A stretch of DNA of 64,000 nucleotides from Escherichia coli (GTDB taxonomy: Bacteria > Pseudomonadota > Gammaproteobacteria > Enterobacterales > Enterobacteriaceae). Positions within the stretch are counted from its first letter, which is position 1, and the number at the start of each line of letters is the position of its first letter. Below, piece by piece: positions 44,784 to 51,984 of this stretch. Location: assembly GCF_046105845.1 (NCBI RefSeq), contig NZ_CP151004.1. One strand, written 5' to 3'. The notes beneath the pieces are model-generated. The model was not told the DNA's origin and did not search any database. It saw only the letters and a list, made by a program, of their open reading frames with translations. The position numbers and the translations under genes are program-made.

Positions 44784-44859
44784 TGGTGGGTCGTGCAGGA
44801 TTCGAACCTGCGACCAATTGATTAAAAGTCAACTGCTCTACCAACTGAGCTAACGACCC
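44784..44859 (-). tRNA. lysV: tRNA-Lys (anticodon UUU)
   Basis: Reverse complement reads GGGTCGTTAGCTCAGTTGGTAGAGCAGTTGACTTTTAATCAATTGGTCGCAGGTTCGAATCCTGCACGACCCACCA; 76 nt with encoded CCA. Confidence 0.97.
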
Positions 44860-44863
44860 GAAG

Positions 44864-44939
44864 TGGTGGGTGATGACGGGATCGAACCGCCGACCCCCTC
44901 CTTGTAAGGGAGGTGCTCTCCCAGCTGAGCTAATCACCC
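44864..44939 (-). tRNA. valY: tRNA-Val (anticodon UAC)
   Basis: Reverse complement reads GGGTGATTAGCTCAGCTGGGAGAGCACCTCCCTTACAAGGAGGGGGTCGGCGGTTCGATCCCGTCATCACCCACCA; 4-nt spacer to lysV. Confidence 0.97.
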
Positions 44940-44985
44940 ACTTCGGTACTTCACATTTTTACAAGAAATTTAGCTGGTGAGAAAG

Positions 44986-45061
44986 TGGTGGGTGATGACG
45001 GGATCGAACCGCCGACCCCCTCCTTGTAAGGGAGGTGCTCTCCCAGCTGAGCTAATCACCC
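44986..45061 (-). tRNA. valX: tRNA-Val (anticodon UAC)
   Basis: Identical 76-nt tRNA-Val copy. Confidence 0.97.
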
Positions 45062-45105
45062 ACTTCTCAATTTCTTGCTACACGGCGGAGACTACATAAA
45101 GTAGT

Positions 45106-45181
45106 TGGTGGGTGATGACGGGATCGAACCGCCGACCCCCTCCTTGTAAGGGAGGTGCTCTCCCAGCTGAGCTAATCACCC
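45106..45181 (-). tRNA. valU: tRNA-Val (anticodon UAC)
   Basis: Identical 76-nt tRNA-Val copy; first gene of the tRNA operon. Confidence 0.97.
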
Positions 45182-45439: not shown

Positions 45440-46855
45440 ATGAAAATCAAAACTCGCTTCGCGCCAAGCCCAACAGGCTATCTGCACGTTGGCGGCGCGC
45501 GTACTGCTCTTTACTCCTGGCTTTTTGCACGTAACCACGGCGGTGAGTTCGTGCTGCGTATTGAAGACACCGATCTTGAGCGTTCCACGCCGGAAGCTAT
45601 CGAAGCCATTATGGATGGCATGAACTGGCTGAGCCTGGAGTGGGATGAAGGTCCGTACTACCAGACCAAACGTTTTGATCGCTACAACGCGGTGATCGAT
45701 CAGATGCTGGAAGAGGGCACAGCTTATAAATGCTATTGCTCTAAAGAGCGCCTGGAAGCGCTGCGCGAAGAGCAAATGGCGAAAGGTGAGAAACCGCGTT
45801 ATGACGGTCGCTGCCGCCACAGCCATGAGCATCATGCTGATGATGAACCGTGCGTTGTACGTTTTGCTAACCCGCAGGAAGGTTCTGTTGTTTTTGACGA
45901 TCAGATCCGTGGTCCGATCGAATTCAGCAACCAGGAGCTGGATGATCTGATTATCCGTCGTACCGATGGTTCTCCAACCTATAACTTCTGTGTGGTGGTT
46001 GACGACTGGGATATGGAAATCACCCACGTTATCCGTGGCGAAGACCATATCAACAACACGCCACGCCAGATCAACATTCTTAAAGCACTGAAAGCGCCGG
46101 TACCGGTTTACGCGCACGTTTCTATGATCAACGGCGATGACGGCAAAAAACTGTCCAAACGTCACGGGGCGGTCAGCGTAATGCAGTATCGTGATGACGG
46201 TTATCTGCCAGAAGCACTGCTGAACTATCTGGTGCGTCTGGGCTGGTCCCACGGCGATCAGGAAATCTTCACTCGTGAAGAGATGATCAAATACTTCACC
46301 CTGAATGCCGTCAGCAAATCTGCCAGTGCGTTCAACACCGACAAGCTGCTGTGGCTGAACCATCACTACATTAACGCGCTACCGCCGGAGTATGTTGCTA
46401 CTCACTTACAGTGGCACATTGAGCAGGAAAATATCGATACCCGTAACGGCCCGCAGCTGGCTGATCTGGTGAAACTGCTGGGCGAACGCTGCAAGACGCT
46501 GAAAGAGATGGCACAGAGCTGCCGTTATTTCTACGAAGATTTTGCTGAGTTCGATGCCGACGCCGCGAAAAAACATCTGCGTCCGGTAGCGCGTCAGCCG
46601 CTGGAAGTGGTTCGTGACAAACTGGCCGCGATTACTGACTGGACCGCTGAAAACGTTCATCACGCTATTCAGGCGACGGCGGATGAGCTGGAAGTGGGTA
46701 TGGGTAAAGTTGGTATGCCGCTGCGTGTCGCCGTAACTGGTGCGGGGCAGTCTCCGGCGCTGGATGTTACCGTTCACGCAATCGGTAAGACCCGCAGTAT
46801 CGAGCGTATCAACAAAGCGCTGGCTTTTATTGCTGAACGCGAAAATCAGCAGTAA
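45440..46855 (+). CDS. gltX: Glutamate--tRNA ligase GltX
   Basis: 471 aa [30 protein letters not shown].. with class I HVGG and KLSKR motifs. Confidence 0.97.
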
Positions 46856-46872
46856 TTAGCGCATAAAAGATA

Positions 46873-46904
46873 AACGGCAGGAGAGATACCCCTGCCGTTT
46901 TTTA
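46873..46904. terminator. Bidirectional rho-independent terminator between gltX (+) and yfeD (-)
   Basis: 9-bp stem aacggcagg/cctgccgtt followed by tttttt; A-rich on the 5' side. Confidence 0.8.
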
Positions 46905-46905
46905 T

Positions 46906-47298
46906 TTATTCTGATTCATCTATGTCGAGACGAGCAAGGAAATTACGAATTCCTTCGCGTGACAAAAATTGCGCAACTTTTTCCTGCTCACTGTGAGTCA
47001 TGTTGTCTATTGCGCTGATGATTTGCCGATAAGCAGGAGTGCGAATCCCCGGTGCGTATTCGGCAAGGGGTTCTTCGGCTTCCAGAAGCATCGGCGTGTT
47101 ATGGAAGGCTGGCGTGTTCTGAATAAACTCGCAAACTTGCGTATCGACCAGAATAAGTCTGGCACGACCGCCTTTCACGCCAGGAAACTTTTCCGTTTTC
47201 CAGCCTTTTTCTCTGATCCAACGGTTAACAGTTTGTTTAGCCACACCGAGGCATTCAGCCAGTTCTTCGGTGGTCATTTTATTGCGTAATCTTTTCAT
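46906..47298 (-). CDS. yfeD: Small putative DNA-binding protein YfeD (HTH)
   Basis: 130 aa MKRLRNKMTTEELAECLGVAKQTVNRWIREKGW..; paralogous to adjacent yfeC. Confidence 0.88.
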   Translation of the reverse strand: MKRLRNKMTTEELAECLGVAKQTVNRWIREKGWKTEKFPGVKGGRARLILVDTQVCEFIQNTPAFHNTPMLLEAEEPLAEYAPGIRTPAYRQIISAIDNMTHSEQEKVAQFLSREGIRNFLARLDIDESE

Positions 47299-47299
47299 A

Positions 47300-47644
47300 T
47301 TATTTGCTATCGCGAATCCCTAAGCGTTGTAATAATCCGATAATCCCTTCCCGCAGAAGCAAGGATGTAAACTGTTTTTGTTCAACTGGCGTCATCTCTT
47401 TCGCCAGTGTCACCAGCAACACTTCAAGCGGCGCATCACCAGACAGGGCAGGCGCTTCTCCCTGACCTTCTGGACGTTCAGCATTGCGAATATATTCACG
47501 AACCTGTTCATTGACGTGAACCAGTCGGGCTTTGCCACCCTGGACGCCAGGTTTTGGTGACGTTGTCCAGCCTTCCTTGCGTACCCATTTATTAATGGTC
47601 TGGCGGCTATAGCCGGTCAGTCTGGCAAGTTCATCTGGCGTCAT
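47300..47644 (-). CDS. yfeC: Small putative DNA-binding protein YfeC (HTH)
   Basis: 114 aa MTPDELARLTGYSRQTINKWVRKEGW..; strong SD aaggagagg before this ATG; alternative upstream start at 47659 would add 5 aa. Confidence 0.85.
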   Translation of the reverse strand: MTPDELARLTGYSRQTINKWVRKEGWTTSPKPGVQGGKARLVHVNEQVREYIRNAERPEGQGEAPALSGDAPLEVLLVTLAKEMTPVEQKQFTSLLLREGIIGLLQRLGIRDSK

Positions 47645-47818
47645 CCTCTCCTTGAACATAACAATTCCCTGAATGTATGTGGGTCTATTAGTCGTTCATT
47701 TTATAACACCACTTTACAGGAAACCGTGACATGAATAACTACTGAATGCGAGCGGTTTTCCAAAATTGTTCATTTGCCTGATTTTTCAGCGATTGAAACT
47801 ACACGTTGCAATTTGCCG

Positions 47819-47847
47819 TTGACACATTCGGGCGGAATTCATATGAT
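47819..47847 (+). promoter_or_regulatory. Sigma-70 promoter of the alaX-alaW tRNA operon (stringent-type)
   Basis: TTGACA-N17-TATGAT followed by GC-rich discriminator gccgcccg, about 30 nt upstream of alaX. Confidence 0.7.
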
Positions 47848-47879
47848 GCCGCCCGTCAACTCGACAAGCTTTACGTGAC

Positions 47880-47955
<76 letters not shown>

Positions 47956-47994: not shown

Positions 47995-48070
<76 letters not shown>

Positions 48071-48079
48071 AATTTCCAA

Positions 48080-48105
48080 CCCTCGCTGCAAAGCGGGGGT
48101 TTTTT
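48080..48105 (+). terminator. Rho-independent terminator after alaW
   Basis: ccctcgct-gcaa-agcggggg hairpin followed by tttttt. Confidence 0.8.
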
Positions 48106-48277: not shown

Positions 48278-50467
48278 ATGTTTGTGGAGCATAACCTGAT
48301 AAAAAATATCAAGATATTCACACTAGCGTTTACGCTCACCGTGGTACTTATTCAGCTATCCCGTTTTATTTCGCCACTTGCCATTATCCATTCCAGTTAT
48401 ATCTTTCTGGCGTGGATGCCACTGTGCGTAATGCTGTCAATCTTGTTTATCTTTGGCTGGCGCGGTGTCGTTCCCGTTTTATGCGGGATGTTTTGCACCA
48501 ATCTGTGGAACTTTCATCTCTCTTTTTTACAGACCGCGGTCATGCTCGGCAGCCAGACGTTTGTGGTGTTGTGTGCCTGCGCAATATTACGCTGGCAGCT
48601 GGGGACGCGTTGGCGTTATGGATTGACCAGCCGATATGTCTGGCAACGTCTTTTCTGGCTTGGTTTGGTGACGCCGATCGGCATCAAATGCAGCATGTAT
48701 CTTGTGGGGAGCTTTTTTGATTTCCCGCTAAAGATATCCACCTTTTTCGGCGATGCGGATGCCATTTTCACAGTCGTTGATTTACTAAGCCTTTTCACCG
48801 CTGTGCTGATTTACAACATGCTTTTCTACTATCTCACTCGCATGATTGTAAGTCCCCACTTTGCGCAGATATTGTGGTGCAGGGATATCGCTCCGTCGTT
48901 GGGCAAAGAGAAACGCGCATTTACCTTAAGCTGGCTGGCAGCGTTAAGCGTGCTGCTACTTCTGCTGTGCACACCGTATGAAAATGACTTTATTGCCGGT
49001 TACCTGGTGCCCGTTTTCTTCATTATCTTTACCCTCGGGGTCGGTAAGCTCCGCTATCCGTTTTTAAATCTCACCTGGGCTGTTTCAACGCTTTGCCTTC
49101 TGAATTACAACCAGAACTTTTTGCAAGGGGTGGAAACCGAATATTCGCTGGCATTTATTCTCGCGGTGCTGATTTCCTTTAGCGTTTGCCTGCTCTATAT
49201 GGTGCGCATTTATCATCGCAGTGAATGGCTTAATCGCCGCTGGCATTTGCAGGCGCTGACCGATCCGTTAACGCTCCTACCCAACTTTCGTGCGTTAGAA
49301 CAAGCGCCGGAGCAAGAGGCGGGCAAGAGTTTTTGCTGCCTGCGCATTGATAATCTTGAGTTTATGAGTCGTCATTACGGCTTAATGATGCGCGTTCACT
49401 GTATCCGATCAATTTACCGTACGCTGCTGCCGTTGATGCAGGAAAACGAAAAGTTGTATCAATTGCCGGGTAGTGAACTGCTGTTAGTGCTGAGCGGGCC
49501 GGAAACGGAAGGGCGACTCCAGCATATGGTTAACATCCTGAATAGTCGGCAAATTCACTGGAACAATACCGGGCTGGATATGGGCTATGGTGCTGCCTGG
49601 GGGCGTTTTGATGGAAATCAGGAAACCCTGCAACCCTTGTTGGGGCAGTTAAGCTGGCTGGCGGAGCAATCCTGCGCACATCATCATGTGCTGGCGCTGG
49701 ATAGCAGAGAGGAGATGGTTTCCGGGCAGACCACTAAACAGGTGCTATTGCTGAATACCATTCGTACGGCGTTAGATCAGGGTGATTTGCTGCTCTACGC
49801 CCAGCCAATTCGCAACAAAGAGGGTGAAGGTTATGATGAGATCCTCGCGCGACTGAAATATGACGGCGGCATTATGACCCCGGATAAGTTTCTGCCCCTT
49901 ATTGCTCAGTTTAACCTTAGCGCGCGTTTTGATTTGCAAGTGCTGGAATCCTTGTTGAAGTGGCTGGCAACACACCCTTGCGACAAAAAAGGTCCGCGCT
50001 TTTCAGTCAATTTAATGCCGCTCACGCTGCTGCAAAAGAATATTGCCGGGCGGATTATTCGTCTGTTTAAGCGTTATCACATCTCCCCGCAGGCGGTCAT
50101 TCTTGAGATCACCGAGGAGCAGGCGTTTTCTAACGCAGAAAGCAGCATGTACAACATCGAGCAACTGCATAAGTTTGGCTTCCGGATTGCGATTGATGAC
50201 TTTGGCACCGGCTATGCCAACTACGAACGGTTAAAGCGTTTGCAGGCTGATATCATCAAAATTGATGGTGTCTTTGTGAAAGATATCGTCACGAATACGC
50301 TGGATGCGATGATTGTGAGATCAATTACCGATCTGGCGAAAGCGAAGTCATTGAGTGTGGTCGCGGAGTTTGTCGAGACGCAACAGCAGCAGGCGCTATT
50401 GCATAAGCTCGGGGTGCAATATCTGCAAGGGTATTTGATTGGTCGCCCGCAGCCATTAGCTGATTAA
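48278..50467 (+). CDS. pdeA: Cyclic-di-GMP phosphodiesterase PdeA (YfeA): N-terminal membrane sensor domain, degenerate GGDEF, EAL domain
   Basis: 729 aa MFVEHNLIKNIKIFTLAFTL..; C-terminal EAL signatures (..IAIDDFGTGYANYERL..); ORF-track extension (48218) rejected. Confidence 0.92.
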   Translation: MFVEHNLIKNIKIFTLAFTLTVVLIQLSRFISPLAIIHSSYIFLAWMPLCVMLSILFIFGWRGVVPVLCGMFCTNLWNFHLSFLQTAVMLGSQTFVVLCACAILRWQLGTRWRYGLTSRYVWQRLFWLGLVTPIGIKCSMYLVGSFFDFPLKISTFFGDADAIFTVVDLLSLFTAVLIYNMLFYYLTRMIVSPHFAQILWCRDIAPSLGKEKRAFTLSWLAALSVLLLLLCTPYENDFIAGYLVPVFFIIFTLGVGKLRYPFLNLTWAVSTLCLLNYNQNFLQGVETEYSLAFILAVLISFSVCLLYMVRIYHRSEWLNRRWHLQALTDPLTLLPNFRALEQAPEQEAGKSFCCLRIDNLEFMSRHYGLMMRVHCIRSIYRTLLPLMQENEKLYQLPGSELLLVLSGPETEGRLQHMVNILNSRQIHWNNTGLDMGYGAAWGRFDGNQETLQPLLGQLSWLAEQSCAHHHVLALDSREEMVSGQTTKQVLLLNTIRTALDQGDLLLYAQPIRNKEGEGYDEILARLKYDGGIMTPDKFLPLIAQFNLSARFDLQVLESLLKWLATHPCDKKGPRFSVNLMPLTLLQKNIAGRIIRLFKRYHISPQAVILEITEEQAFSNAESSMYNIEQLHKFGFRIAIDDFGTGYANYERLKRLQADIIKIDGVFVKDIVTNTLDAMIVRSITDLAKAKSLSVVAEFVETQQQQALLHKLGVQYLQGYLIGRPQPLAD

Positions 50468-50474
50468 CAGGCGT

Positions 50475-50506
50475 AAAAAAGCCGGGGAATGATCCCCGGC
50501 TTTTTT
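50475..50506. terminator. Bidirectional rho-independent terminator between pdeA (+) and nupC (-)
   Basis: aaaaaa-gccgggga-atga-tccccggc-tttttt; perfect 8-bp GC stem. Confidence 0.85.
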
Positions 50507-50516
50507 ATGTATGGTT

Positions 50517-51719
50517 TTACAGCACCAGTGCTGCGATTGACGCAGACAGCACACTCACCAGGGTAGAGCCGTAAACCAGTTTCAGACCGAAGCGAGAAAC
50601 CACGTTACCTTGCTCTTCATTCAGGCCTTTAACCGCACCAGCGATAATCCCGATAGAAGAGAAGTTAGCGAAGGAAACCAGGAACACAGAGATGATGCCT
50701 TCAGCACGCGGAGAGAGCGTGGAAGCAATTTTCTGCAGATCCATCATCGCAACGAACTCGTTGGAAACCAGTTTGGTCGCCATGATACTGCCCACTTGCA
50801 GTGCTTCACTGGAAGGAACACCCATCACCCATGCAATCGGATAGAAGATGTAGCCCAGGATGCCCTGGAAGGAGATGCTGTAGCCAAACCAGCCAGTCAC
50901 GGTGGCAAACAGTGCGTTCAGCGCGGCGATCAGGGCGATAAAGCCGATCAGCATCGCGGCAACGATAATGGCAACTTTGAAACCTGCCAGAATGTATTCA
51001 CCCAGCATTTCGAAGAAGCTCTGACCTTCGTGCAGGTTGGACATCTGGATGTTTTCTTCACTGGCATCAACACGGTAAGGGTTGATCAGCGACAGCACGA
51101 TAAAGGTGCTGAACATGTTCAGTACCAGCGCCGCAACGACGTATTTCGGTTCCAGCATGGTCATGTATGCACCAACGATGGACATCGACACGGTGGACAT
51201 CGCCGTGGCAGCCATGGTGTACATGCGATTGCGGGAGATTTTGCCGAGGATATCTTTATAGGCAATAAAGTTTTCAGACTGACCCAGAATCAGGGAGCTG
51301 ACGGCGTTAAAGGATTCCAGTTTGCCCATACCGTTGACTTTGGAGAGCAGGAAACCAATTGCGCGGATAATTACCGGCAACACGCGAATGTGCTGGAGAA
51401 TACCGATCAGTGCAGAGATAAAGACGATTGGGCACAGCACTTTCAGGAAGAAGAATGCCAGGCCTTGATCATTCATGCTACCAAAGACGAAGTTAGTCCC
51501 TTCGTTGGCAAATCCGAGCAGTTTTTCGAACATTTCGGAGAAGCCTTTCACGAAGCCTAAACCAACGTCGGAGTTCAGGAAGAACCACGCCAGTAACACT
51601 TCGATAACAAGCAGTTGAATAACATAACGGATACGAATTTTTTTGCGGTCGCTGCTTACCAGCAGTGCGAGAATCGCAACAACGGCAAGTGCCAGTACAA
51701 AATGAAGGACGCGGTCCAT
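50517..51719 (-). CDS. nupC: Nucleoside:H+ symporter NupC
   Basis: 400 aa [53 protein letters not shown]..; ORF-track extension rejected. Confidence 0.95.
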
Positions 51720-51984
51720 ATTTGCTCCAAATATGAGGCAGGTTAAATTTCCGTGCACATTCTATGTAACATGGTTAAGGAAAACGAGATCTGACACACA
51801 CTATAATGACGTCCTGTGACCAGCTTCAAAAATAGTGAGCTGTCATACATTTCTGCTATGTTGTGTATGGAAGCTGAAAGTTATGTAAATGTGCTAACAT
51901 TAAACATAACCATAACATTCAAGTCATCAATCTTTTCGTAGTCATAATCCTGGTCTATCAGAGAAATCACCACAACCCATTTAA

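Follow-up and report, generated by a model that had tools for sequence, protein, structure and literature searches.

Relatives of YfeC and YfeD

The Pfam family PF07037, 'Transcription regulator YfeC-like' (formerly DUF1323), includes YfeC (b2398) and YfeD (b2399) of Escherichia coli K-12. Published work already covers the genes, the family, the binding sites in vivo and several mutant phenotypes; these phenotypes are pleiotropic and concern the release of eDNA and gut colonization (PMC8464067, PMC5847654).

The solved structures that come closest belong to two groups. The Mu-type HTH domains (MuA, 1tns; the Mu c repressor, 1g4d/1qpm) are phage-borne and carried with the body of a transposase or repressor. 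BldC (6ama/6amk), RacA (5i41/5i44) and the DNA-binding domain of pSK1 Par (8csh), the best fold matches over the N-terminal ~50 residues, are small, consist of little beyond a MerR-type winged helix-turn-helix (wHTH) domain, and bind DNA as oligomers. The MerR family proper (CueR, SoxR, BmrR) activates through promoter distortion, and the excisionase/HTH_17 proteins (Xis, TorI, AlpA) belong to the same fold class as YfeC and YfeD.

Genes and gene order

The DNA analyzed here, hereafter the window, is a stretch of 64,000 nt from E. coli contig NZ_CP151004.1. It contains the operon yfeC-yfeD, which encodes two small paralogous transcription factors that were already known, and its flanks:

46906..47298, minus strand: yfeD coding sequence, 130 aa (open reading frame; PF07037, 2e-61; RefSeq annotation)
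47300..47659 (119 aa) or 47300..47644 (114 aa, K-12), minus strand: yfeC coding sequence (open reading frame; PF07037, 3e-51)
45440-46855, plus strand: gltX, flank
47880-47955 and 47995-48070, plus strand: two tRNA-Ala(GGC) genes (ARAGORN; Rfam)
44784-45181, minus strand: valU-valX-valY-lysV, flank

A sequence-only reading of the window had described two minus-strand reading frames of 130 and 114 aa as tandem paralogues with a common N-terminal HTH, and had called them yfeD and yfeC. Both frames are present, the second extending further to an ATG at 47659, and the names are those of the RefSeq annotation. The two products align over nearly their whole length (BLASTP, 46 of 125 positions identical, 37%, E 1e-26), and both match the PF07037 model in full, with 206.1 bits for YfeD (residues 8-129 on model positions 1-122) and 173.2 bits for YfeC (residues 1-113 on model positions 1-122), far above the gathering score of 22.9 bits. 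The same reading would have been given up if the two proteins lacked formal similarity or if one copy were not expressed; the pairwise alignment is strong, and ChIP-exo signal was obtained for both as myc-tagged proteins at their native loci. YfeC was also detected by proteomics. The observation is real but ordinary and carries little weight as a discovery; what it offers are corrections, concerning the fold class, the yfeC start, the toxin-antitoxin assignment and the autoregulation peak, and a lead in the dimorphism of yfeD.

The stretch is present in 5425 of the 5426 complete E. coli genomes. YfeC of the window does not differ from the K-12 protein, and YfeD shares 93% identity with its K-12 counterpart; nothing essential differs from the K-12 genes, the window having the non-K-12 allele of the 3' part of yfeD. 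The order of two tRNA-Ala genes, a divergent spacer, yfeC-yfeD and convergent gltX is kept in most of 80 Enterobacteriaceae loci, and the spacer, at 47645-47879 in the window, is constant at ~235 nt, so that the placement beside tRNA promoters, already noticed in the window, is a conserved one. Distant family members likewise adjoin gltX. The placement had been described as lying between the gltX terminator and the alaX promoter; the flanks are right, and the promoter belongs to the alaWX operon, whose promoter-proximal gene in K-12 is alaW. The family is restricted to the chromosome of Enterobacterales. A plasmid origin was considered and rejected, the 13 'plasmid' matches being mostly of megabase size or otherwise non-mobilizable, apparently chromosomal DNA. 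The only Rfam matches in the window were six tRNAs, and the yfeC leader contained no RNA element.

Architecture of the proteins

The two proteins appear to be built from three parts, placed as follows by AlphaFold2 (AF2) models:

47113-47277, minus strand: YfeD wHTH domain, residues ~8-62 (secondary structure, fused AF2 model)
46930-47037, minus strand: YfeD C-terminal helical hairpin, residues ~88-123 (fused AF2 model)
47480-47644, minus strand: YfeC wHTH domain, residues 1-55 in the 114-aa numbering (AF2 model, pLDDT 79)
Residues 56-72 in the 114-aa numbering, minus strand: YfeC disordered linker (AF2 model)
47324-47428, minus strand: YfeC hairpin, residues 73-107 in the 114-aa numbering (AF2 model)

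In the model of YfeC, helices at residues 3-10 and 14-24, strands at 28-30 and 40-42 and a helix at 46-54 are followed by a segment with pLDDT <50 (residues 58-66) and by two helices with pLDDT >90 (73-83 and 86-107). The N-terminal part would be a wHTH domain of Mu-type or MerR-like build, with a recognition helix around RQT(I/V)N(K/R)W and a wing GW-T...PGV(Q/K)GG(K/R)AR; the middle part, a predicted disordered linker of 15-30 residues, appears to evolve fast; and the C-terminal part would form a conserved helical hairpin, MTxxEQxxLxxLLxREGIxG(L/F)LxRLGI. Identity between YfeC and YfeD drops from 51% over the N-terminal domain to 18% over the linker and is 33% over the hairpin. The divergent C-terminal halves of the earlier description are therefore a property of the middle linker only, as conservation between the paralogues returns in the C-terminal ~40 residues. 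A segment MTxxEQ...REGIxGLLxRLGI is conserved across the 58 family members, distant ones included, with E88, R98, G100, L105, R107 and L108 conserved in at least 90% of them. Values of dN/dS are 0.03-0.19 for the whole genes, 0.04-0.10 for the N-terminal domain, 0.07-0.12 for the C-terminal region and 0.13-0.29 for the linker. Judged from these ratios, both yfeC and yfeD are under purifying selection and functional, which counts against one copy being idle.

The family profile matched the N-terminal domain of Mu transposase (1tns, E 6.9e-5, with the wing GVxGGKA aligned) and the Mu c repressor (1g4d, E 0.014, wing aligned), and the winged-helix fold can be superposed on the Mu repressor domain. 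Consistently, a Salmonella orthologue carries the UniRef label 'HTH Mu-type domain-containing protein'. The match of YfeC to Pfam HTH_Tnp_Mu_1 (PF02316; 14.8 bits, E 0.037) lies below the gathering score of 23.3, and YfeD is not listed for this model. Unlike the Mu proteins, YfeC and YfeD are chromosomal and have neither a transposase nor a repressor body; beyond the Mu-type domain they possess the family-specific hairpin. Foldseek returned nothing at E<=1e-3 with the whole chain; placement was possible for the N-terminal domain only, with local matches to BldC and RacA. The proteins share only 13-24% sequence identity with BldC, RacA and pSK1 Par, in which the hairpin has no counterpart; in profile and fold searches, none of the solved structures matched it. 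BldC oligomerizes head-to-tail and RacA by a coiled coil, modes that YfeC and YfeD need not share.

The names under which the proteins are filed elsewhere need correction. PGAP calls yfeD a member of the MerR family, but the matches to Pfam MerR_1 (12.3 and 12.8 bits) remain below the cut-off of 21.6; in contrast to MerR proper, YfeC and YfeD appear to have a disordered linker between the wHTH domain and the helices and no effector-binding domain, and YfeC mostly represses. A listing as LysR proteins is a table entry in PMC4797297 and is a misfiling, considering the length of 114-130 aa vs. about 300 and the absence of HTH_1 or LysR_substrate matches. With an N-terminal winged helix of the Mu-type/MerR-like class, the proteins support neither filing. 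Membership of the excisionases (Xis/AlpA, TIGR01764) was rejected as well: the scores of 27.5 and 18.6 bits are below 28.8, and the neighbors are gltX and tRNA-Ala genes rather than an integrase. YfeD is above the HTH_17 threshold (31.3 vs. 27 bits). Unlike excisionases, YfeC and YfeD have no integrase or attachment site nearby, occupy a fixed core locus and have an extra C-terminal domain. Some copies are labeled 'AlpA' by JGI.

Operon structure and regulatory elements

The following elements were placed around the two genes:

47298..47302, minus strand: operon junction, consisting of the yfeC stop TAA, 1 nt and the yfeD ATG (sequence)
46872..46900, no strand assigned: hairpin with T-runs on both sides between convergent gltX and yfeD (terminator scan, 12-bp stem; sequence)
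47700..47731, minus strand: candidate yfeCD promoter (conservation in a 71-sequence intergenic alignment)
47776..47800, no strand assigned: conserved block GCCTGATTTTTCAGCGATTGAAAC, ~64 nt upstream of the alaW transcription start (alignment conservation)
47819..47847, plus strand: alaWX promoter, TTGACA, 17 nt, TATGAT, then a GC-rich discriminator (promoter scan, 11 of 12 matches)
48048..48081, no strand assigned: published ChIP-exo peak 'yfeC', NC_000913.2 2516052-2516085 (peak list; K-12 annotation)

The gap between yfeC and yfeD varies from -20 to +9 nt across the measurable loci, 45 of which have a gap of exactly 1 nt; in one exceptional locus (L050), a third copy sits between the two genes. 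As read from the sequence, the TAA-T-ATG junction implies that translation of yfeC and yfeD is coupled. Upstream of the K-12 start, the ATG at 47659 is kept in all 71 loci and opens a segment M[I/L/F]KERM in which five synonymous codons are used for Arg, and PGAP annotates yfeC as 119 aa. Probably, this ATG is the real start of yfeC, in which case the K-12 start has been placed 15 nt too far downstream. The two genes would be co-transcribed from the candidate promoter, ~55-60 nt upstream of the start at 47659. It has an extended -10 element, TGtTATAAA (47708-47700), with a conserved TGTCAC box (47731-47726) 20 nt upstream, and its spacer contains a conserved TTTCCnGTAAA element. The spacing of 20 nt between TGTCAC and TATAAA may be compared with the 19-20-bp spacers of MerR-type promoters; a simple consensus promoter scan did not call this promoter at 47700..47731. 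The transcript would end at the hairpin shared with convergent gltX, which is likely a bidirectional intrinsic terminator, judging from its stem and T-runs. The alaWX promoter is divergent from yfeC. Two further sequences in this region may be mentioned. ATTCAGGGAATTG was considered as an operator candidate and is more simply seen as the Shine-Dalgarno region of the upstream yfeC start. The TTTCCnGTAAA element of the promoter spacer resembles the strong abgR site and was not adopted as an operator.

DNA binding and autorepression

According to the sequence-only reading, no target had been assigned to these regulators. This is outdated, as ChIP-exo gave 50 sites for YfeC and 36 for YfeD, and a motif and the transcriptome of a ΔyfeC mutant are available as well (Gao et al., 2021, PMC8464067). 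A single YfeD site is identical to a YfeC site, and binding of the two is otherwise largely different; 40% of the YfeC sites are intragenic. Of the 50 genes bound by YfeC, 20 change expression in the mutant, and 16 of these 20 direct targets are repressed by YfeC; several ribosomal-protein genes are among the targets. Expression is low (baseMean 55 and 267), and neither pdeA nor gltX belongs to the set with differential expression in ΔyfeC. The operon yfeCD itself is listed as a direct YfeC target, and yfeD is ~20-fold up in ΔyfeC (log2FC +4.33, padj 5e-133) (PMC8464067). The K-12 RefSeq product name of YfeC is 'DNA-binding transcriptional dual regulator'.

A YfeC matrix was rebuilt from 17 of the 50 published peaks, and the window was scanned with it. 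The motif is a weak TTTCGGAAAC-like palindrome of about 9.6 bits over 12 positions (17 sites), and the 64-kb window holds many matches elsewhere that equal or exceed those in the spacer. The best match in the spacer (score 10.7, top 1.6e-4 of window positions) coincides with the conserved block GCCTGATTTTTCAGCGATTGAAAC, which is also Fis-site-like; the function of this block, as far as its sequence goes, is ambiguous. Since the motif is weak and its best spacer match falls on a Fis-like block, no operator is claimed here.

For the explanation as a whole, i.e., an operon of known paralogous regulators with three-part architecture, which oligomerize through the hairpin and of which YfeC probably represses yfeCD, we estimate a probability of roughly 0.75. 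The C-terminal hairpin would provide the surface for dimerization or higher oligomerization, and the two wHTH domains of an oligomerized pair would read short, weakly palindromic sites of the TTTC..GAAA type. An AF2 model of a YfeC-(GGGGS)6-YfeD fusion, made with a paired alignment of 35 rows, gave a pTM of 0.32 and a pLDDT of 67, with no confident inter-chain or inter-domain packing; it speaks neither for nor against a heterodimer. Dimerization through the hairpin, like the operon structure and the domain architecture, is one of the parts that we infer. Autorepression of yfeCD by YfeC is probable, yet uncertain. The published peak named 'yfeC' maps to the 3' end of the distal tRNA-Ala gene, and ~400 nt separate it from the start of yfeC; this 'autoregulation' peak is therefore located off the yfeC promoter. 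For this placement, coordinates were shifted by +1976 to +1978 from NC_000913 version.2 to.3, a shift that was checked against the aroM, adrA and ychN peaks. Furthermore, tRNA genes are a class of sites prone to ChIP artifacts. Polarity of the deletion construct could also account for the 20-fold rise of yfeD.

Alternative roles and origins

Rather than classical regulators, YfeC and YfeD might be loosely specific architectural or nucleoid-associated proteins that oligomerize on DNA like BldC, RacA and pSK1 Par, the minimal MerR-like proteins that are also their best structural matches. A weak motif, strongest peaks inside genes (mukF, abgR, fdoG, yheO) and pleiotropic mutant phenotypes (eDNA release, gut colonization) would suit such a role, and the 40% of intragenic sites fit a loosely specific protein as well as a classical regulator. 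However, sites number only 50 and 36 rather than hundreds, expression is low, and the mutation alters the expression of 20 of the 50 bound genes, which makes this role rather unlikely. Less likely still is that the proteins regulate their conserved neighbors, i.e., the alaWX tRNA operon, pdeA or gltX, and owe their fixed position to this function. The gene order with its constant ~235-nt divergent spacer in most of the 80 loci, the presence of distant family members beside gltX, the YfeC peak between the tRNA genes and pdeA, the conserved block near -64 of the alaW promoter, which holds the best matrix match of the spacer, and the ribosomal-protein genes among the targets all point in this direction. 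Yet, pdeA and gltX remain outside the differentially expressed set in ΔyfeC, the conserved block also fits a Fis site, as expected at a tRNA promoter, ChIP artifacts are frequent at tRNA genes, and synteny in a core region may reflect simple inheritance. The expression data on pdeA and gltX in ΔyfeC gave no support for a functional role of the tRNA-side placement.

Two other proposals are very improbable. Among solved structures, only the N-terminal domains of Mu transposase and Mu repressor show a significant link by sequence, which could suggest that the genes are remnants of a Mu-like prophage with a decayed repressor or transposase DNA-binding module; but the flanks contain no phage genes, tblastn against 50,697 phage genomes gave no match at E<=0.01, and the position is identical across the Enterobacteriaceae under strong purifying selection. 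A recent prophage origin is refuted by these data, which allow at most an ancient domestication of the domain. Similarly, YfeD and YfeC were predicted 'with high confidence' by RASTA-Bacteria to be a type II toxin-antitoxin pair, a prediction repeated in PMC5847654, and the two genes are indeed small, neighboring and coupled in translation, with an HTH in one of them, and both proteins match Pfam 'YdaS_toxin' weakly (E 0.0014 and 0.037). These matches score 18.8 and 14.3 bits against a threshold of 30 and cover the HTH only, and no toxin family in Pfam or NCBIfam was matched above threshold. Moreover, ΔyfeC was made in three studies and no growth defect ensued, despite the 20-fold rise of yfeD, and, unlike mobile toxin-antitoxin modules, the family is core-chromosomal, stays at one fixed locus and is missing from both phages and true plasmids. 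As YfeC and YfeD belong, as paralogues along their full length, to a single DNA-binding family, neither is a distinct toxin. The prediction, although still cited in the literature, is wrong and effectively refuted.

Two alleles of yfeD

Comparison of E. coli genomes delimited a segment with two alleles:

46862..47095, no strand assigned: yfeD codons ~68-130 and the terminator

The 3' part of yfeD exists in E. coli as two deeply diverged alleles, found in 41% vs. 59% of the genomes and ~18% divergent. This sharp polymorphism seems not to have been described before. The family is found almost only at one locus, between the tRNA-Ala operon and gltX with its invariant 235-nt spacer, ribosomal-protein genes are among the published YfeC targets, and two ancient yfeD alleles coexist (41%/59%). 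YfeC and YfeD could be read as a lineage-specific module linked with the translation machinery or the expression of tRNAs; this is a speculative and improbable reading. If true, the partner or oligomerization surface of YfeD would be under long-term balancing selection or repeated introgression. In the part encoding the linker and the hairpin, dS between the two alleles is about 1.4.

The yfeCD locus and its transcription

The two neighbouring minus-strand genes are real and were correctly identified as yfeD and yfeC, the names that they also carry in RefSeq, and they are already known, annotated and partly characterised; the most interesting remainder is the tie of their family to one locus, together with a dimorphism of yfeD. 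The sequence-only reading had placed them between gltX and tRNA-Ala genes with tRNA clusters around, and the flanks match this description. The stretch is present in 5425 of 5426 complete E. coli genomes.

Features of the yfeCD region (window coordinates)
past gltX, the valU-valX-valY-lysV cluster (flank)
end at 46855, plus strand, gltX (flank)
46872-46900, hairpin with a 12-bp stem and T-runs on both sides, between the convergent gltX and yfeD
46906-47298, minus strand, yfeD, ORF of 130 aa
end at 47300, minus strand, yfeC, ORF starting at 47644 (114 aa, K-12 annotation) or 47659 (119 aa)
47708-47700, minus strand, candidate yfeC promoter with extended -10 TGtTATAAA, conserved in a 71-sequence alignment
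47776-47800, conserved block GCCTGATTTTTCAGCGATTGAAAC, ~64 nt upstream of the start of alaW, holding the best YfeC matrix match in the spacer
from 47880, plus strand, two tRNA-Ala(GGC) genes (flank)

A single nucleotide separates the yfeC stop from the yfeD start (TAA-T-ATG). Across 80 loci from Escherichia, Citrobacter, Salmonella, Klebsiella, Enterobacter, Kosakonia, Kluyvera, Leclercia, Atlantibacter and others, this junction ranges, where measurable, from -20 to +9 nt, and 45 of these loci have precisely 1 nt there. Upstream of yfeC, a TGTCAC box lying 20 nt upstream of the candidate extended -10 is likewise conserved in the 71-sequence alignment; a simple consensus scan made no call at the candidate promoter. 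The yfeC gene most likely reaches 47659, the K-12 start at 47644 probably being 15 nt too far downstream. This reading is based on an in-frame ATG 15 nt 5' of the K-12 start, which is kept in all 71 loci with enough sequence, on a similar basic extension (MKRLRNK) at the N-terminus of YfeD, and on the 119-aa form of YfeC that PGAP annotates in most genomes. The added region encodes M-(I/L/F)-K-E-R-M, and its Arg codon varies between CGA, CGG, AGG, AGA and CGT and its Glu codon between GAA and GAG; such synonymous variation points to a constrained coding sequence rather than a mere ribosome-binding site.

Architecture and class of the proteins

YfeC and YfeD are tandem paralogues, as had been proposed from the sequence: BLASTP aligned them over 125 columns, nearly the full length of both, with 37% identity (E 1e-26), and each matches Pfam PF07037, "Transcription regulator YfeC-like", over its full length (2e-61 and 3e-51). 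An AlphaFold2 model of YfeC, built from a 58-member family alignment (pLDDT 79), consists of an N-terminal domain with helices at 3-10, 14-24 and 46-54 and a wing formed by a β-hairpin at 28-30 and 40-42, a stretch at 58-66 with pLDDT below 50, and, with pLDDT above 90, a pair of helices at 73-83 and 86-107. A fused AlphaFold2 model gives YfeD the same arrangement of elements. The shared helix-turn-helix core is thus borne out, with 51% identity between the N-terminal domains, but the C-terminal halves, described earlier as divergent, are so only in the linker (18%); the C-terminal hairpin (33%) carries a motif, MTxxEQxxLxxLLxREGIxG(L/F)LxRLGI, that is as conserved across the family as the helix-turn-helix. 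Family-profile and Foldseek/structure searches found no solved structure resembling this hairpin. We infer that it is the oligomerisation surface: these very small DNA-binding proteins have this one conserved module besides the helix-turn-helix, and the motif in the literature has the form of an inverted repeat. In a YfeC-linker-YfeD fusion modelled from a paired alignment, the two proteins were packed without confidence (pTM 0.32).

The family profile matched the N-terminal DNA-binding domains of the phage Mu transposase (1tns, E 6.9e-5) and, at E 0.014, of the Mu c repressor (1g4d), and the wing, GW..T...GVxGGKA, aligned with both. Fold matches to the N-terminal domain were the pSK1 Par DNA-binding domain (6.2), RacA (5.8), mycobacteriophage Xis (5.6), MerR-family proteins (5.1), BldC (5.0) and the Mu repressor (4.5, 26% identity). 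Foldseek matched BldC and RacA only locally and gave no significant match to the whole chain. Neither protein reached the Pfam thresholds of MerR_1 and HTH_Tnp_Mu_1 or the cut-off of TIGR01764 (excisionase); the sole threshold passed was that of HTH_17, by YfeD only. The Mu-type assignment is not new, since a Salmonella orthologue is already named "HTH Mu-type domain-containing protein" in UniRef. One widely used table files both proteins under the LysR family (PMC4797297), and PGAP names the yfeD product "MerR family transcriptional regulator"; both proteins fail the models of these two families.

Function and possible autoregulation

The earlier statement that these regulators have no assigned target is out of date, in view of published sites and targets and of the K-12 RefSeq label of YfeC, "DNA-binding transcriptional dual regulator". 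Working with both proteins tagged in their native loci, Gao et al. (2021; PMC8464067) mapped 50 sites of YfeC and 36 of YfeD by ChIP-exo; the YfeC motif is described there as inverted repeats rich in TTC (MEME E 7.1e-10). Deletion of yfeC altered the expression of 205 genes, and 16 of the 20 direct targets, which include chaB, panD, rpmH, rpmB, rpsU, grxC, hybE and lpp, were repressed by YfeC (PMC8464067). The two site lists share only one identical site, ispB/sfsB, which argues against an obligate YfeC/YfeD heterodimer under those conditions. YfeC has been detected by proteomics. An older screen tied yfeC to the release of extracellular DNA. An E. coli K1 ΔyfeC mutant showed reduced small-intestine colonisation and lethality in neonatal rats, and LEE expression was unaffected in an EHEC ΔyfeC mutant.

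Autorepression of yfeCD by YfeC is plausible but not established, since the relevant peak sits over the distal tRNA-Ala gene, at its 3' end, the rise of yfeD in the deletion strain could be a polar effect, and a rebuilt matrix is weak and has better matches elsewhere. tRNA genes are common ChIP artefacts. Between NC_000913.2 and.3, coordinates at this peak shift by what we take to be +1976 to +1978, in agreement with the aroM, adrA and ychN peaks falling beside their named genes. After this shift, the peak labelled "yfeC" (NC_000913.2 2516052-2516085), put forward as evidence of direct autoregulation (PMC8464067), corresponds to ~48048-48081 in the window, upstream of pdeA and ~400 nt from the yfeC start. 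In the same study, "yfeCD" is on the direct-target list, and yfeD was 20-fold up in ΔyfeC (log2FC 4.33, padj 5e-133; PMC8464067). The matrix rebuilt from 17 published peaks is a weak TTTCGGAAAC-like palindrome of ~9.6 bits; its best match in the spacer, at 47784-47795, ranks in the top 1.6e-4 of window positions, with many better ones elsewhere in the window. The conserved block around this match would fit a Fis site as well.

Loosely specific, architectural DNA binding in the mode of BldC and RacA is a real alternative to regulation of defined targets, and it is favoured by the fold matches, by the weak motif and by the many intragenic sites. Synteny and the one doubtful peak are all that suggests local regulation of alaWX, pdeA or gltX, and neither pdeA nor gltX is among the differentially expressed genes of the published ΔyfeC data. 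The published prediction of a toxin-antitoxin pair fails, since YfeC and YfeD are paralogues that belong to a single DNA-binding family, neither has a toxin-family match above threshold in Pfam or NCBIfam, published deletions are harmless, and the genes occupy an immobile core locus. A recent prophage remnant is excluded by gene context and by a phage search, in which tblastn against 50,697 phage genomes found no match.

Distribution and selection

The YfeC-like family is very small. Searched exhaustively with HMMER, 1.84 billion representative proteins yielded 78 matches at E<=0.001, many of them frameshifted fragments; a word-indexed search yielded 574 proteins, and among the 120 matches listed, all those with a source name were from Enterobacterales. 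The few "plasmid" matches were mostly to megabase-size or otherwise non-mobilizable records, which apparently carry chromosomal DNA. A second paralogue lies 3' of yfeC in all 80 loci. Most loci have a convergent gltX downstream; upstream, wherever that flank was recovered, there are divergent tRNA-Ala(GGC) genes, usually two, at a near-uniform distance of about 235 nt, and in most pdeA comes next. The spacer between yfeC and the first tRNA-Ala gene (47645-47879 in the window) is near constant, ~231-236 nt, in roughly 70 species of many genera, and it holds several blocks of strong conservation, of which the Fis-site-like one at 47776-47800 stands out. Even distant members (34-49% identity), one a single gene and one a tandem pair, adjoin gltX. 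The single gene (L091:413-763, a metagenomic contig from SRR26825337), 49% identical to YfeC and convergent with gltX, may represent the state before duplication.

Enterobacter sp. BIGb0383 (L050:4001-5129) has three tandem genes, yfeC plus two YfeD-like copies that overlap at ATGA-type junctions; with a third copy sitting between the two genes, it is the exception to the junction range. At four loci (L056, L061, L064 and L069; Atlantibacter and one strain labelled Citrobacter freundii), the second gene is nearer to YfeC (47-51% identity) than to YfeD (35-37%), and in Enterobacter pulveris (L083) it is about equidistant (32-33%), which suggests independent duplication, gene conversion or a third type of paralogue.

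YfeC is more conserved than YfeD: mean identity among orthologues goes from 87% (N-terminal domain) to 72% (C-terminal region) for YfeC, and from 67% to 51% for YfeD. Both genes are under purifying selection, with dN/dS values, relative to Escherichia, Citrobacter and Salmonella, of 0.07-0.19 for yfeC, 0.03-0.14 for yfeD and 0.01-0.04 for gltX; constraint is weakest in the linker.

A two-allele polymorphism in yfeD

Compared with K-12, YfeC is identical and the intergenic region matches at 234 of 235 positions, whereas yfeD DNA is 89.6% identical and YfeD differs at nine residues. The differences cluster in one segment.

46862-47095, variable segment, codons ~68-130 of yfeD and the terminator between gltX and yfeD

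Here dN is 0.087 and dS 1.44, against a dS of 0.048 in codons 1-67, and the flanking DNA matches at 98-99.5%. Among 5426 complete E. coli genomes, identity to the window segment is bimodal, being at least 95% in 2240, 90-95% in two and 80-90% (about 82%) in 3184; yfeD thus shows a sharp two-allele polymorphism. E. whittamii and cryptic-clade strains carry a segment 97-98% identical to the K-12 type, although their yfeC is only ~90% identical, and the window type is closest to E. albertii (86.5%). The alleles look ancient and exchanged by recombination.

The window itself differs from K-12, its best E. coli match over 46700-47900 being 99.7%. In E. coli AF39 (L096, NZ_OZ547136.1), an IS200C lies in the gltX-yfeD intergenic/terminator region, at the equivalent of ~46856-46905. 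K-12 (L001:1-118) carries IS186C directly past pdeA; this element is absent from the corresponding part of the window (50467-51758), where a 413-aa ORF on the opposite strand follows ~50 nt after pdeA.
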